Source: a virus (lineage: Duplodnaviria > Heunggongvirae > Uroviricota > Caudoviricetes). From it: DNA of 4,556 bases. The position numbers were made by a program, and so were the translations under genes. The stretch lies in the IMG/VR virus record IMGVR_UViG_2671180577_000008. One strand, 5' to 3'. The notes under the pieces were generated by a model. It did no database searches. It was not told the DNA's origin and worked only from the letters and a program-made list of their open reading frames with translations. Below, piece by piece: positions 1,342 to 4,556 of the stretch. The stretch's first letter is position 1. Every line of letters begins with the position of its first letter.

Positions 1342-1365
1342 AAAAAAGGCCCGCAAAAGCGAGCC
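1342..1365 (-). terminator. Rho-independent terminator immediately downstream of the tRNA cluster (minus strand)
   Basis: Minus-strand RNA GGCUCGC-UUUU-GCGGGCC (7-bp stem with one G-U pair, 4-nt loop) followed by U6 (plus-strand A6 at 1342-1347), 17 nt after the argO-like 3' end. Confidence 0.55.
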
Positions 1366-1381
1366 GGGAAAATAAGTGTAG

Positions 1382-1455
1382 CGCGTTGTACTGGAGTCGA
1401 ACCAGTGACCGATTGCTTAGAAGGCAATTGCTCTGTCCTGCTGAGCTAACAACGC
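1382..1455 (-). tRNA. argO: tRNA-Arg, anticodon UCU (reads AGA); prophage argO-type; CCA not encoded
   Basis: Minus-strand sequence GCGTTGT-TA-GCTC-AGCAGGACA-GAGC-A-ATTGC-CTTCTAA-GCAAT-CGGTC-ACTGG-TTCGACT-CCAGT-ACAACGC-G folds as a canonical 74-nt cloverleaf: 7-bp acceptor, 4-bp D stem, 5-bp anticodon stem, loop CU-UCU-AA, T-loop TTCGACT, discriminator G. Confidence 0.85.
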
Positions 1456-1468
1456 AGAATACCGATAA

Positions 1469-1544
1469 TGGACCACCACCGGGGACTCGAACCTCGCACA
1501 CTCAACTTAAAGGGTTGACGCTCTTTCCTGATGGCTAGTGGCGG
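1469..1544 (-). tRNA. argN: tRNA-like gene, argN-type by position and backbone but degenerate: anticodon loop CC-UUU-AA (UUU with C33), weakened D stem; possibly a pseudo-tRNA
   Basis: Minus-strand sequence CCGCCAC-TA-GCCA-TCAGGAAA-GAGC-G-TCAAC-CCTTTAA-GTTGA-GTGTG-CGAGG-TTCGAGT-CCCCG-GTGGTGG-T-CCA. Acceptor pairs 7/7 (one G-U), encoded CCA, T-loop TTCGAGT. Only 2 of 4 D-stem pairs form, one A-C mismatch in the T stem, C instead of the near-universal U33. Backbone aligns block-by-block with E. coli tRNA-Arg(UCU) as recalled (TAGC, AGAGC, CTTCTAA versus CCTTTAA, GGTTCGAAT versus GGTTCGAGT). Confidence 0.5.
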
Positions 1545-1545
1545 T

Positions 1546-1621
1546 TGGTGGCCCTTGCTGGATTTGAACCAGCGACCTGGCGATTATGAGTCGCTCGCTC
1601 TCACCACTGAGCTAAAGGGCC
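1546..1621 (-). tRNA. ileZ: tRNA-Ile2 (anticodon CAU, lysidine-type, reads AUA); prophage ileZ-type (tools often label it tRNA-Met); CCA encoded
   Basis: Minus-strand sequence GGCCCTT-TA-GCTC-AGTGGTGA-GAGC-G-AGCGA-CTCATAA-TCGCC-AGGTC-GCTGG-TTCAAAT-CCAGC-AAGGGCC-A-CCA, a 76-nt cloverleaf, near-identical in layout to E. coli ileX as recalled. Confidence 0.85.
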
Positions 1622-1630
1622 GGGCGCAGG

Positions 1631-1659
1631 ATAATAACGTTACGAAATCAATGTTGCAA
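1631..1659 (-). promoter_or_regulatory. Candidate sigma70 promoter for the tRNA cluster
   Basis: Minus strand TTGCAA (1659-1654), 17-bp spacer, TATTAT (1636-1631); predicted start ~7 nt downstream, within a few nt of the mature ileZ 5' end at 1621. Confidence 0.45.
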
Positions 1660-1722: not shown

Positions 1723-1757
1723 ACACAACAAAACCCGCTTGTGGGCGGGTTTTGTTT
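1723..1757 (-). terminator. Intrinsic terminator hairpin (candidate tR'); T-rich on both sides so potentially bidirectional
   Basis: Plus 1730-1753 aaaacccgc-ttgtgg-gcgggtttt: GC core CCCGC/GCGGG extended by A/U pairs. The minus-strand RNA is followed by UUUUGUUGUGU, the plus-strand RNA by UUUUGUUUGCUUUU. Lies ~45-75 nt downstream of the candidate pR' start. Confidence 0.55.
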
Positions 1758-1798
1758 GCTTTTGCCATCACGTACAAAATCGGCAAAATATCAGATTT
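1723..1798 (-). ncRNA. Predicted short (~70-76 nt) terminated pR' leader transcript, analogous to lambda 6S RNA / the Stx-phage StxS sRNA; candidate only
   Basis: Defined only by the candidate pR' (-10 at 1810-1805, start near 1798) and the tR' hairpin ending near 1723. No coding capacity in the interval. Confidence 0.3.
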
Positions 1799-1804
1799 GC
1801 ATGA

Positions 1805-1833
1805 AATATATGCCTTTCAATCTACTTTTGCAA
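1805..1833 (-). promoter_or_regulatory. Candidate late promoter pR' (with associated Q-utilisation region), overlapping the 3' end of the Q gene
   Basis: Minus strand TTGCAA (1833-1828), 17-bp spacer, TATATT (1810-1805); immediately downstream of the Q stop codon (1819-1817) and upstream of the tR' hairpin, the expected lambdoid arrangement. Confidence 0.45.
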
Positions 1834-2506
1834 CACTTTGCTTTGAAAATGCCGCCTTTTGTTTTGAACGTGTTCTCATTACAAATAATAAAGCCTCACT
1901 ATCCAGTCGGTGAAAAATGTGTTTCATTGCAACCCAGTGACGAGTAAATGTTTTGGACCAGTTTTTAGTTGTCACTCCCGCCAGTAATGCCAGCTCCTGA
2001 TATTCATAACCTTCCCCACCAAAAAGTTCTGCTTTTACTGCCTGCGCCGCCAGCCAGATTAATTTTTTCAGGCGTTCCTGCGTTTTCCCAGCAATTTTTC
2101 TGGTACCGGATTGAGTATTAAATTCATTCCACGCCCACTGTGTTATCGCGATCTGATATTCCCAACAAATACTCCCGCTGTAACACCACAACAACCAGGC
2201 TTTATGATGTTCTTCAAGAGACAGAACAGCCCGCCGCCACGATGATGTCGAAAACTCAACCGGACTGACCAGAGGAATTGACGTCACCTTCGCCAGCGAT
2301 TGCTTTCCCGGGATTGGTGGATTATCCCGCGTTATCATTTTTCCAGTCACTTCATCGCGGTACCGGATTTTTTTTCGCCTGTAACGCCCTGTATCGAACA
2401 TGGCATTCTCCTGCCAGGCTTCAAGCTGACCTTTTGTTGCCCCACTCAAATCAGCGGTGGCGATAATGAGCTGCTCACGCACAAACTGTAAATAGTGGTT
2501 ATTCAT
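1817..2506 (-). CDS. Late-gene antitermination protein Q (229 aa), probably Q82/QuuQ-like; called from gene order, not from a recognised motif
   Basis: ORF track 1817..2512 (GTG); preferred start is ATG at 2506-2504, which overlaps the rusA stop as ATGA, with GGAG 5 nt upstream. Sits between rusA and pR'/tR'/tRNAs/late genes. Protein MNNHYLQFVREQLIIATADLSG... has no lambda-Q-type paired CxxC zinc finger, so it is not lambda-type Q. Confidence 0.6.
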   Translation of the reverse strand: MNNHYLQFVREQLIIATADLSGATKGQLEAWQENAMFDTGRYRRKKIRYRDEVTGKMITRDNPPIPGKQSLAKVTSIPLVSPVEFSTSSWRRAVLSLEEHHKAWLLWCYSGSICWEYQIAITQWAWNEFNTQSGTRKIAGKTQERLKKLIWLAAQAVKAELFGGEGYEYQELALLAGVTTKNWSKTFTRHWVAMKHIFHRLDSEALLFVMRTRSKQKAAFSKQSVAKVD

Positions 2507-2868
2507 GCGCACTCCAGTTCTGTGATTTTTATCCCCAGCCGCCCACCAGGAACGAGCTGACCGCGCACAATATTGATTTCATCAAACTGCTCGTCGTCTA
2601 TGAGAAGTCCGGCATGCGTCAGCACATCCAGTGGTGCTTTCAGGATATTGTCCAGGTCACGACGGCGCTTATCCGGTGGCTCTGCAATAATCTTTATCAC
2701 CAGCCTTCCGGACAGGTTTAATTTCAGCCGCTGCTGGCGAACAATTAGCGCCACATCACGGCGATAACTCTTTCCGGCTTCCGAGATGAAATACGTATTG
2801 CCATGACGTCGCCAGTAGGTATTCACCGTCGGCGGGTAAGGCAAAACAAATTCTATCCGTTCAGTCAT
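2503..2868 (-). CDS. rusA: RusA-family Holliday-junction resolvase (121 aa)
   Basis: Translation MTERIEFVLPYPPTVNTYWRRHGNTYFISEAGKSYRRDVALIV...AEPPDKRRRDLDNILKAPLDVLTHAGLLIDDEQFDEINIVRGQLVPGGRLGIKITELE carries the RusA signature blocks (LPxPPSxN, DRRRRDLDN, DDxQ) as recalled from DLP12 RusA. ATG at 2868 abuts the upstream stop (TGAATG). Confidence 0.85.
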   Translation of the reverse strand: MTERIEFVLPYPPTVNTYWRRHGNTYFISEAGKSYRRDVALIVRQQRLKLNLSGRLVIKIIAEPPDKRRRDLDNILKAPLDVLTHAGLLIDDEQFDEINIVRGQLVPGGRLGIKITELECA

Positions 2869-3924
2869 TCATGCTTTCCACTTCAGGACACCCGAATTTC
2901 TCGCGTGCATTAAAAAACGAATCAGCAACAACAGCTGGCTGCCGTGTTTTTCTTCAAAATCTTTTACCCCAGCGTGCAGTTCGTTATGACATTTACGGCA
3001 CAGCGGAATAACAAACAAATCATCAGCCTTTGTTCCCATCCCTCCCAGTCCATGACCAATGATGTGATGCGGATCATCTGCCTGATTACCGCACGTCATG
3101 CATTTCTGCGTTTTTACCCAGCGCGTGTATACAGGCATCTCTTCCCGTTGTGGTTTCTGGCGCTGGAGATACTGAGCCGGTGACTCCGGATCAACGGCAA
3201 TGCTGACCACCGTCTTTTCCTGTGGCGGGTTTTGCTGGTGGGCGTGAGGCAGCGGCGCAAGATTTTTTGTGCGCTGCTTCAGTATGATGGTGGCGGTCTG
3301 CTCTCCCGGTACGATGTCGCTTTCACGGTACATTGAGCGGATTTTTTCCGCACGCAACCCCAGCGAACGACGTAATACCGCTTCCGGTAGCGCGTCCGCC
3401 ACCTGATTGCGGACCGCCCACCAGGATAATTCAGCCAGAGATAATTCACGCTCCTGCGTACCGCTTATTGCGTGACCGATGACGTCAATCATCCATGCTG
3501 ACAGGTTTTGATGAGCAAGTTGCTCGAGTGATTCGGATGTCTGGTCACGCAGCTGGTTGTCGCAGTGCCAGCACAACACCATTGCGCCGGTACCATAACG
3601 GTGAATAACGGTTTCACTGTGATGATAGTCACCATGAGGCCACTGGCAGGATTTGACATGACGCAACAGCCAGTCAGACAGTGCACCAGCGCCACCAACA
3701 GCACGAATCACACGCTCATTGCTGAAAAACGGCAGTAATGATTTATCCTCCGCCAGCGGCTGGCGAACGGCAGGGACGATGCCGGACGGCAGACCGCGCA
3801 TGCTTTTCGGTTCCGGCTCCACAAGCACTCGAGGGTTATGGAATACCTGCATGGATTCACGGCCTGGTTTAAGGACCACCAACCCAAGTTCCGGTACCGG
3901 AACAGGTCGAAGTAATACCCGCAC
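2869..3924 (-). CDS. DUF968 / YdfU-family prophage protein (351 aa) with two Cys/His-rich HNH-like (putative nuclease/zinc-binding) motifs
   Basis: Long minus-strand ORF. GTG start at 3924 with GGAGG SD 4 nt upstream, 1 nt after the upstream TAA; alternative ATG at 3852. Motifs: CQWPHGDYHHSETVIHRYGTGAMVLCWHCDNQL and C-terminal CMTCGNQADDPHHIIGHGLGGMGTKADDLFVIPLCRKCHNELH. Stop TGA at 2871-2869 directly abuts the rusA ATG. Confidence 0.65.
   Translation of the reverse strand: MRVLLRPVPVPELGLVVLKPGRESMQVFHNPRVLVEPEPKSMRGLPSGIVPAVRQPLAEDKSLLPFFSNERVIRAVGGAGALSDWLLRHVKSCQWPHGDYHHSETVIHRYGTGAMVLCWHCDNQLRDQTSESLEQLAHQNLSAWMIDVIGHAISGTQERELSLAELSWWAVRNQVADALPEAVLRRSLGLRAEKIRSMYRESDIVPGEQTATIILKQRTKNLAPLPHAHQQNPPQEKTVVSIAVDPESPAQYLQRQKPQREEMPVYTRWVKTQKCMTCGNQADDPHHIIGHGLGGMGTKADDLFVIPLCRKCHNELHAGVKDFEEKHGSQLLLLIRFLMHARNSGVLKWKA
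3888..3903. repeat. Perfect 16-bp palindrome GTTCCGGTACCGGAAC inside the 5' end of the DUF968 gene (codons ~8-13)
   Basis: Direct read; the sequence equals its own reverse complement (CCGG-flanked GGTACC core) and lies 21-36 nt downstream of the GTG start. Confidence 0.9.
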
Positions 3925-4405: not shown

Positions 4406-4556
4406 TGAACCGCCCCGGGAATCCTGGAGACTAAACTTCCTGAGAAAGAGGTAAACAGGATGACTAAAAATACTCGTTTTTCCCCTGAAGTCCGTCAACG
4501 GGCAGTCCGTATGGTTCTGGAAAGTCAGGGCGAATATGACTCACAATGGGCGACAA
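4406..4556 (+). mobile_element. IS629-like (IS3 family; IS629/IS1203) insertion sequence, left end only; element continues beyond the window
   Basis: Terminal TGAACCGCCCCGGGAATCCTGGAGACTAAACTTCC... begins at 4406 (IS3-family TG terminus) and is followed by the orfA start; matches the IS629 left end as recalled. Confidence 0.75.
4460..4556 (+). CDS. IS3-family transposase OrfA (IS629 orfA), N-terminal 32 codons; 3' partial
   Basis: ATG at 4460 with AGAGG/CAGGA SD upstream. Translation [32 protein letters not shown], the helix-turn-helix N-terminus recalled for IS629/IS1203 OrfA. Open to the window end. Confidence 0.8.

Follow-up and report, generated by a model that had tools for sequence, protein, structure and literature searches.

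A damaged tRNA-Lys(UUU) allele, probably decaying, in the argN slot of a lambdoid prophage

We examined the tRNA cluster in a 4,556-nucleotide stretch of viral DNA (Caudoviricetes; IMG/VR record IMGVR_UViG_2671180577_000008), the whole of which is called the window here. Our subject is the 76-nt tRNA-like gene at positions 1469 to 1544, which lies on the minus strand between an ileZ-like gene and an argO gene and is referred to as the slot-2 gene. This gene is likely to be a crippled or pseudo tRNA-Lys from a lysine lineage of tRNA-Arg descent, one that is decaying stepwise and is still transcribed. Its annotation calls for correction to a damaged prophage tRNA-Lys(UUU) allele, neither an argN nor a clean tRNA-Lys, and current pipelines disagree about it, DDBJ giving a tRNA-Lys and PGAP nothing. 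Three known kinds are joined in the gene: a prophage tRNA, a tRNA gene shifted between alloacceptor families, and probably a young tRNA pseudogene.

Anatomy and scores of the slot-2 gene

A first-pass annotation, made from the sequence alone, had described a tRNA-shaped sequence of 76 nt between the ileZ-like and argO-like genes, and this was confirmed by ARAGORN, by the Rfam tRNA model and by exact recurrence in other records. ARAGORN called three minus-strand tRNAs in the window, with anticodons CAT, TTT (as tRNA-Lys) and TCT (as Arg) (Table 1). Read on the minus strand, the slot-2 gene parses as CCGCCAC UA GCCA UCAGGAAAG AGC G UCAAC CCUUUAA GUUGA, continuing with GUGUG CGAGG UUCGAGU CCCCG GUGGUGG U CCA. 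The anticodon loop is CCUUUAA, with C at position 33 and the anticodon UUU. The acceptor stem is paired at all seven positions (one of them a G.U), the anticodon stem at all five and the T stem at four of five, the exception being an A51.C63 mismatch. In the D stem the Rfam alignment shows two non-standard pairs out of four, and folding allows an alternative of 3 bp with a bulged A23. Among the conserved tRNA nucleotides U8, A14, G18G19, T54-Psi55-C56 and A58 are kept, U33 is replaced by C, and the discriminator is U73. The loop with C33 and UUU, the good acceptor stem, the encoded CCA and the mismatches in the D and T stems had all been read correctly in the first pass.

When a 91-nt stretch was scanned alone, the Rfam tRNA model (RF00005) gave the slot-2 gene 28.2 bits with E = 1.4e-4, just below the gathering score of 29; in a scan of the whole window (E<=1) the gene was lost to the filters and not reported. 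The same model gave 72.5 bits to ileZ, 68.1 to argO, 43.0 to the argN of Shiga toxin (Stx) phages and 44.4 to the intact Lys allele described below. Covariance scoring thus places the gene under the model's cut-off, and ARAGORN assigned it to Lys (TTT) with no conventional Arg anticodon. ARAGORN's detection limit, as a percentage of its default threshold, was 102% for the slot-2 gene, 112% for the intact Lys allele and 122% for a related form with U33. Exact copies of the window allele were found in 222 complete E. coli records, 11 phage records and 13 IMG/VR viral-contig loci. Because of the Rfam E value and this exact recurrence, the gene is a tRNA-like sequence that did not arise by chance. 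The cloverleaf of the slot-2 gene has a folding energy of -15.4 kcal/mol vs -23.3 kcal/mol for the minimum free energy (MFE) fold, the corresponding values for the intact Lys allele being -22.3 and -25.0 kcal/mol. The unconstrained MFE fold of the slot-2 gene is not a cloverleaf and has a z-score of -1.36, a value that is uninformative for a tRNA with mismatches.

Relation to argN of Stx phages

The annotated argN of Stx2a_F349 occupies the same slot and carries the anticodon UCG in the loop CUUCGAA. The first-pass annotation had called the slot-2 backbone argN-like, which held for the homology and the slot but not for the anticodon, since that of argN is UCG and not UCU. Between Stx2a_F349 and the window the ileZ genes are identical and the argO genes differ by one base, whereas the middle genes differ at 12 sites, all of them within positions 7-47; the 3' 30 nt are identical. 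Relative to Stx argN the window gene shows U7→C, the loss of U12, two D-loop changes, U27.G43→U-A, G30-C40→A-U, U33→C, C35→U, G36→U and two variable-loop changes, while A51.C63, G3.U70, U73 and the encoded CCA are common to both.

The same comparison extends to the argN of the ileZ-argN-argO clusters upstream of stx (Stx2a_F349, AP012530; phage 2851; Nil2). The window gene shares with these the place between ileZ and argO, identical flanks, an identity of about 84% and the 3' end, but it differs from them in having UUU instead of UCG, C33 instead of U33, a deleted U12, changed stem pairs at 7:66, 27:43 and 30:40, the two D-loop and two variable-loop substitutions, and no stx downstream. It is therefore argN by position and homology, but without C35, a determinant of arginyl-tRNA synthetase (ArgRS), and without an Arg anticodon. 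A literature search on ileZ, argN and argO found nothing relevant, and one on lambdoid tRNA genes found only the SfI paper.

The argN of the Stx phages (3095-3171 of locus L002, and others) is itself imperfect, with U7.G66, G3.U70 and A51.C63, and scores 43 bits. With the Lys-type allele it shares an identical T arm and 3' end, whereas in other argN alleles the T stem is paired throughout; from these comparisons it looks like a mosaic with an argN 5' part and a Lys 3' part.

A Lys(UUU) sublineage of the slot

A search of complete E. coli genomes with the slot-2 gene returned alleles 96-97.5% identical to it that PGAP annotates as tRNA-Lys. The intact alleles have their home in a different cluster downstream of Q, with the order Ile(CAU)-Lys(UUU)-Thr(UGU)-Gly(UCC). 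The intact allele, of 77 nt, reads CCGCCAC UA GCUC AUCAGGAAA GAGC G UCAAC CCUUUAA GUUGA and then GUGUG CGAGG UUCGAGU CCCCG GUGGCGG U CCA. It has the C33/UUU loop and the T-stem mismatch of the window gene, together with an intact D stem (GCUC/GAGC) and a G3-C70 pair, and its Rfam score is like that of Stx argN. It is present exactly in 279 complete E. coli records and occurs in the isolated phages vB_EcoM-606R7, vB_EcoS-689R5 and PhiR47_1 (98.7%).

The window allele is this intact allele minus U12 and with C70→U. It is thus identical but for two sites to the prophage tRNA-Lys(UUU) of Ile-Lys-Thr-Gly clusters such as those of EC12, AR_0118 and APEC O1, from which it also differs in being followed by argO, as in Stx phages, instead of Thr-Gly and in being left unannotated by PGAP. 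At the 3' end it is an exact match to the Stx argN allele, so that only an internal patch distinguishes the window gene from Stx argN. This suggests recombination between alleles with a common T arm, and the comparison points to patch recombination between slot-2 alleles as the source of the window allele.

UUU and C33 are therefore usual in a large family of Lys(UUU) alleles and not private lesions of the window copy. Comparison with Stx-phage argN and the other homologues did uncover a derived change, the deletion of U12, but the C33 and UUU that the first-pass annotation had counted as signs of degeneracy are normal in the Lys family, which undoes part of that description. In the 48 distinct alleles of 77 nt, the Lys sublineage is set apart from the Arg sublineage by double changes that preserve pairing at 7:66 (C-G/U-A), 27:43 (U-A/C-G) and 30:40 (A-U/G-C). 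These compensated changes in three stem pairs argue that the Lys lineage evolved as a working tRNA. Among the derived Lys alleles themselves, pair-preserving and pair-breaking changes stand at about 6:3, which is no different from what random transitions would give, and this ratio was not used as evidence.

A well-formed relative is found at locus L146, where a Lys gene with U33 and G51 has the loop CUUUUAU, stems that are Watson-Crick throughout and a cloverleaf that is also the MFE fold. This allele is present exactly in 13 E. coli records, where it is annotated as tRNA-Lys. When viral contigs were scanned with a 17-mer for the U33 Lys anticodon arm, L146 alone proved to be a true relative, the other nine hits being chance matches to unrelated DNA. 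With argN-type alleles as the reference, U33 and G51 have been retained by the U33 form, and C4, G26 and A38 by the C33 form. From these comparisons the Lys ancestor appears to have had U33 and G51, and C33 and A51 look derived. At locus L167 an argN allele carries the anticodon UCU, from which UUU is one step away.

The change of family recalls alloacceptor recruitment, in which a tRNA moves from one family to another by anticodon substitution while its body is kept. The recruitment experiment of Saks, Sampson and Abelson (1998) reportedly turned an E. coli tRNA-Arg(UCU) into a tRNA-Thr(UGU). The slot-2 switch differs from such an experiment in being natural, in taking place in a mobile element, in its compensated stem changes and in the decay that followed.

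Charging identity and codon use

ArgRS depends on C35, together with A20, and lysyl-tRNA synthetase (LysRS) depends chiefly on U35, together with U34 and U36, A73 being a weaker determinant. The window gene carries the LysRS anticodon determinants U34, U35 and U36, with U73 in place of A73. If the gene is charged at all, the residual charging would be by LysRS, and the product would be a redundant Lys tRNA reading AAA and AAG.

The open reading frames of the window (924 codons) contain, per 1000 codons, 10.8 AUA, 7.6 AGA, 8.7 AGG and 40 AAA. The AUA, AGA and AGG values are several-fold above those typical of E. coli, whereas the AAA value is ordinary. Since Lys codons are not rare, codon supply can explain ileZ and argO but not the Lys(UUU) gene.

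Variation in slot 2 and its neighbours

A census was made of 225 clusters, drawn from IMG/VR viral contigs anchored on the ileZ 3' end or the Lys anticodon arm and from other fetched loci. Slot 2 has at least 57 alleles, vs 14 for ileZ, one of which accounts for 205 of the 225 clusters (91%). For the other neighbours there were 17 argO alleles in 83 copies, 12 Thr alleles in 94 and 9 Gly alleles in 87. No other position of the operon is as weakly constrained as slot 2. The intact Lys-C33 allele makes up 69 of the slot-2 copies and the window allele 14, to which one with an extra U8C (DEC5E) is added; two copies have the U12 deletion in the Thr context, and about 20 are of a Lys allele with U8C, C4U and C11U. 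Variants of argN(UCG) are also numerous; a scrambled 80-nt remnant accounts for about 25 copies, and others have lost the anticodon arm or are argN/argO fusions. Beside a near-invariant ileZ, the slot therefore offers a natural series in tRNA evolution, with a switch from Arg(UCG) to Lys(UUU), mosaic alleles, stepwise decay and scrambling.

The U12 deletion in the Thr-Gly context (loci L049 and L097) was not found in complete E. coli genomes, where the best match, at 99.1%, is the intact allele; this absence suggests that the combination is rare.

In the fusions (L158, L182 and L224) the 5' half of argN is joined to the 3' half of argO at the CCUUC shared by their anticodon loops, with the deletion of one tRNA, and ARAGORN makes no call on the fusion gene. 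The scrambled remnant, of 80-81 nt (CCGCCATTAGCTTATCAGGAAGAGCAGACGACACGATAACAGGG...), occupies slot 2 in L151, L156, L160, L028 and about 20 other loci; its acceptor stem, T stem and CCA are kept, and its D and anticodon domains are replaced.

The first-pass annotation had presumed that these tRNAs once served toxin genes since lost. Among the loci with enough flank, stx adjoins 9 of the 35 argN(UCG) clusters and none of the 63 Lys-type clusters, which leaves that link unsupported. We rejected a role of the cluster in serving stx, since most clusters of any type are without it; by these counts, the cluster is a general lambdoid feature and not an accessory of the toxin.

Decay of the window allele

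None of the 48 distinct 77-nt slot-2 alleles departs from the pair U12-A23, and the deletion of U12 in the window allele is for this reason derived. The window allele lies 16 bits below the intact allele under the covariance model, a drop that we attribute to this deletion. In the copy of E. coli DEC5E (locus L001, region 4466-4541) the window allele carries a further U8→C; its ARAGORN limit is 98% of the default threshold, and it receives no call at default. PGAP leaves the window allele unannotated in DEC5E, where only tRNA-Ile and tRNA-Arg are given, and in all six of the 100% matches listed. TsaBD, the bacterial t6A enzyme, contacts the pairs G10:C25, C11:G24 and U12:A23 by shape and needs 36-UAA-38 (PMC13276492). 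A tRNA that decodes ANN codons and has the damaged D stem of the window gene is likely to be poorly t6A-modified as well.

We propose the following course of events. One sublineage of the lambdoid argN slot would have switched from tRNA-Arg(UCG) to tRNA-Lys(UUU), at first in the well-formed U33 form. The common form with C33 and the A51.C63 T-stem mismatch would have come second and the window allele third, having lost U12 from its D stem and having the 3' end of the Stx argN type, with G3.U70 and argO downstream. Copies such as that of DEC5E, with their further U8C, would represent a fourth step. The slot-2 gene would be the second gene of a small operon downstream of Q, made up of a promoter-like site, ileZ, slot 2, argO and a terminator-like hairpin. 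Since the window copy has kept its acceptor stem, its T arm and its CCA, we infer that its transcription continues and that RNase P and 3' processing still release it. Because its D stem has 2 bp (or 3 bp and a bulge) and it combines C33 with a T-stem mismatch, it probably decodes poorly or not at all and would count as a young tRNA pseudogene. The suggestion in the first pass that the gene is a decaying pseudo-tRNA thus remains plausible, at or below the thresholds of the callers, but its specific lesion is the loss of U12, and C33 and UUU are no part of it.

Several observations weigh against this interpretation. DDBJ records of PPompW annotate the gene as tRNA-Lys, and ARAGORN calls the window copy at its default threshold. 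A D stem of 3 bp with the bulged A23 can be drawn, and weak D stems are tolerated in some tRNAs. The window allele is exact in its 222 complete records with few added lesions, which fits recent spread and may also reflect retained function. Polymorphism of the Lys-type alleles is only slightly above that of the host-like Thr and Gly genes, the share of the top allele being about 60% vs 67-71%. Finally, the order of the decay steps was polarised by parsimony with argN-type alleles as the reference, and recombination could obscure that order.

Alternative readings

We consider it unlikely that the window allele still functions as a tRNA-Lys(UUU), with a D arm of 3 bp and a bulged A23. The prophage would in that case profit from a Lys tRNA of its own, possibly one resistant to cutting by tRNA nucleases of the host or of competitors (PrrC, and AriB of PARIS). 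Such resistance is proposed because the anticodon stem-loop of the allele differs from that of the host tRNA-Lys. A working gene would be consistent with the ARAGORN call, with the presence of the acceptor stem, anticodon stem, T loop, G18G19, A14, U8 and 36-UAA-38, and with the fact that codon rarity cannot account for a Lys tRNA. AriB cleaves host tRNA-Lys(UUU) at U36AAUC/A41 (the slash marks the cut), substitutions at 39 and 41 confer resistance, and the tRNA-Lys of T5 escapes via changes at these two positions (PMC12409363). The window gene reads U36AAGUU41, differing from the host at 39-41, so by sequence comparison it has both the targeted anticodon and changes at the AriB site. Phage tRNA-Lys genes also rescue phages from PrrC170 (PMC11555353). 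Lambdoid phages have Asn(GUU) and Thr(UGU) genes downstream of Q, of which Asn has no explanation in codon bias (PMC3636060), and these tRNAs too are AriB targets. A second UUU tRNA has arisen independently from a Thr(UGU) gene in the related cluster, which would also fit a working gene. However, U12-A23 is invariant in all other alleles and is contacted by TsaBD, the score is 16 bits lower than that of the intact allele, the discriminator is U73 where tRNA-Lys has A73, and C33 replaces the U33 that is needed for the U-turn and is conserved in bacterial tRNAs (PMC13276492). In addition, the host AriB site, UAAUC/A, is retained in the adjacent Thr gene of the prophage, which argues that the cluster does not generally consist of escape variants.

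A broader form of this idea, which we regard as improbable, holds that the whole Lys(UUU) sublineage is a counter-defence tRNA, a Lys decoder built on an Arg body that nucleases specific for tRNA-Lys (AriB of PARIS, PrrC and their relatives) would fail to recognise, in which C33 and the changes at 39-41 would be adaptive and the window allele would still work. Its nearest counterpart is the tRNA-Lys(UUU) of T5 and other phage tRNA-Lys that neutralise PARIS (AriB) or PrrC (PMC11464382, PMC12409363, PMC11555353). The window gene shares with these the targeted anticodon and an anticodon stem that differs from the host at 39-41, the recognition and cleavage site of AriB, but unlike them it lies in a temperate lambdoid prophage, has an Arg-derived body and is damaged, and we treat the resemblance as a lead only. 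The idea is weakened because the Thr gene keeps the host cleavage site and because the window copy is the damaged form. An eLife paper of 2023 on anticodon-loop mutations in phage tRNAs makes no mention of position 33 or of prophages. If the counter-defence idea were true, temperate lambdoid prophages would join virulent T5-like phages in using tRNAs to evade nucleases, and this would explain why tRNAs for codons that are not rare (Lys UUU, Asn GUU and Thr UGU) lie downstream of Q. The overlap with the targets of tRNA-cleaving defence systems provides a testable alternative to codon supply for the switch to Lys.

We rejected the proposal that the Ile-Lys-Thr-Gly cluster as a whole consists of nuclease-escape variants, since the Thr gene keeps UAAUC/A and the UUU variant of the Thr gene is just 2 nt away from chromosomal tRNA-Thr genes. 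This variant is a thrU-like tRNA-Thr(UGU) in slot 3 with G35→U (L061, L075, L085 and L089); it has the loop CUUUUAA with UUU, a Thr body and A73. It occurs in 6 E. coli genomes (e.g. NZ_CP024232, O6:H16), where PGAP annotates it as tRNA-Lys, and the slot-2 Lys allele at the G35→U loci carries U8C and U73G. The tRNAs downstream of lambdoid Q that serve no rare codon, namely Lys UUU, Thr UGU and Asn GUU, make up the published set of AriB targets.

In E. coli, RNase P separates polycistronic tRNA transcripts. It is quite improbable, though worth weighing, that the slot-2 gene no longer decodes and is kept as a processing signal, its acceptor/T-arm minihelix allowing RNase P, cutting at its 5' end, and 3' trimming to release ileZ and argO from the polycistronic transcript. 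The spacer between the CCA of ileZ and the 5' end of the slot-2 gene is 1 nt, the differences from Stx argN spare the 3' 30 nt, and the scrambled and anticodon-arm-deleted alleles still keep the acceptor stem, T stem and CCA, all of which would suit such a role. However, recent internal deletions or patch recombination would leave the ends in place just as well, lesions of the acceptor stem occur in some scrambled copies (L145 and L214), and in the argN/argO fusions the slot has been lost outright.

The least credible proposal is the one, raised in the first pass, of an Arg-charged tRNA that reads Lys codons and hence miscodes: although the body comes from tRNA-Arg and keeps the ArgRS determinant A20, C35 has been replaced by U35, the three anticodon positions are the main LysRS determinants by the rules given above, and a toxic miscoder is hard to square with an anticodon arm that no fewer than 279 + 222 complete E. 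coli records contain.

Operon and prophage context

The window covers the late-regulatory region of a lambdoid prophage. Its tRNA cluster is 100% identical to that of the PPompW prophages of Shiga toxin-producing E. coli, and the window at full length is 99.6% identical to E. coli O55:H7 DEC5E. On the minus strand the gene order is DUF968, RusA, Q, the tRNA cluster, a TerB-like gene, DUF3927 and a SASA-family esterase. The features of the operon are collected in Table 1.

Table 1. Coordinates of the tRNA genes, slot-2 landmarks and putative transcription signals in the window
Feature	Position	Strand	Basis
slot-2 tRNA-like gene, 76 nt	1469..1544	-	ARAGORN tRNA-Lys(ttt); Rfam tRNA 28.2 bits
slot 2, anticodon	1511-1509	-
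slot 2, C33	1512	-
slot 2, deletion site	between 1534 and 1533	-
slot 2, A51.C63	1494/1482	-
slot 2, G3.U70	1542/1475	-
slot 2, encoded CCA	1471-1469	-
ileZ-like tRNA-Ile2, anticodon CAT, encoded CCA	1546..1621	-	ARAGORN; Rfam 72.5 bits; PGAP tRNA-Ile
argO tRNA-Arg(UCU)	1381..1455	-	ARAGORN; Rfam 68.1 bits; PGAP tRNA-Arg
sigma-70-like promoter TTGCAA-17-TATTAT, directly upstream of ileZ	1631..1659	-	consensus match only
terminator-like hairpin and T run just past argO	1348..1365	-	consensus scan
pR'-like late promoter at the end of Q (1833-1805) and tR'-like 13-bp hairpin (1756-1727)	1727..1833	-	consensus scan
antiterminator Q gene, upstream of the tRNA operon	1817..2512	-	open reading frame; RefSeq annotation of the DEC5E region

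The promoter-like sequence upstream of ileZ recurs in the Ile-Lys-Thr-Gly cluster of locus L031, and the hairpin past argO is likely to be the end of the tRNA operon. Further upstream, the pR'-like and tR'-like sites together look like the source of a short leader RNA in the lambdoid tR' style; isrK and OrzO-P gave weak, sub-threshold Rfam matches at 1727-1800. From these signals the cluster looks like a self-contained operon through which late transcripts would also read.

A 3' CCA is encoded by ileZ and by the slot-2 gene and not by argO, which has discriminator G followed by CUA. Downstream of the tRNA operon, between the DUF3927 and TerB-like genes and the esterase gene, the STnc100 small RNA family is matched at 433-605 on the minus strand with 100.8 bits (gathering score 47, E = 6e-22). 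A run of ten C at 1289-1298 on the plus strand lies between the operon terminator and the TerB-like gene, where slippage could give variation. In DEC5E the TerB-family gene beside the cluster is a pseudogene with an internal stop.

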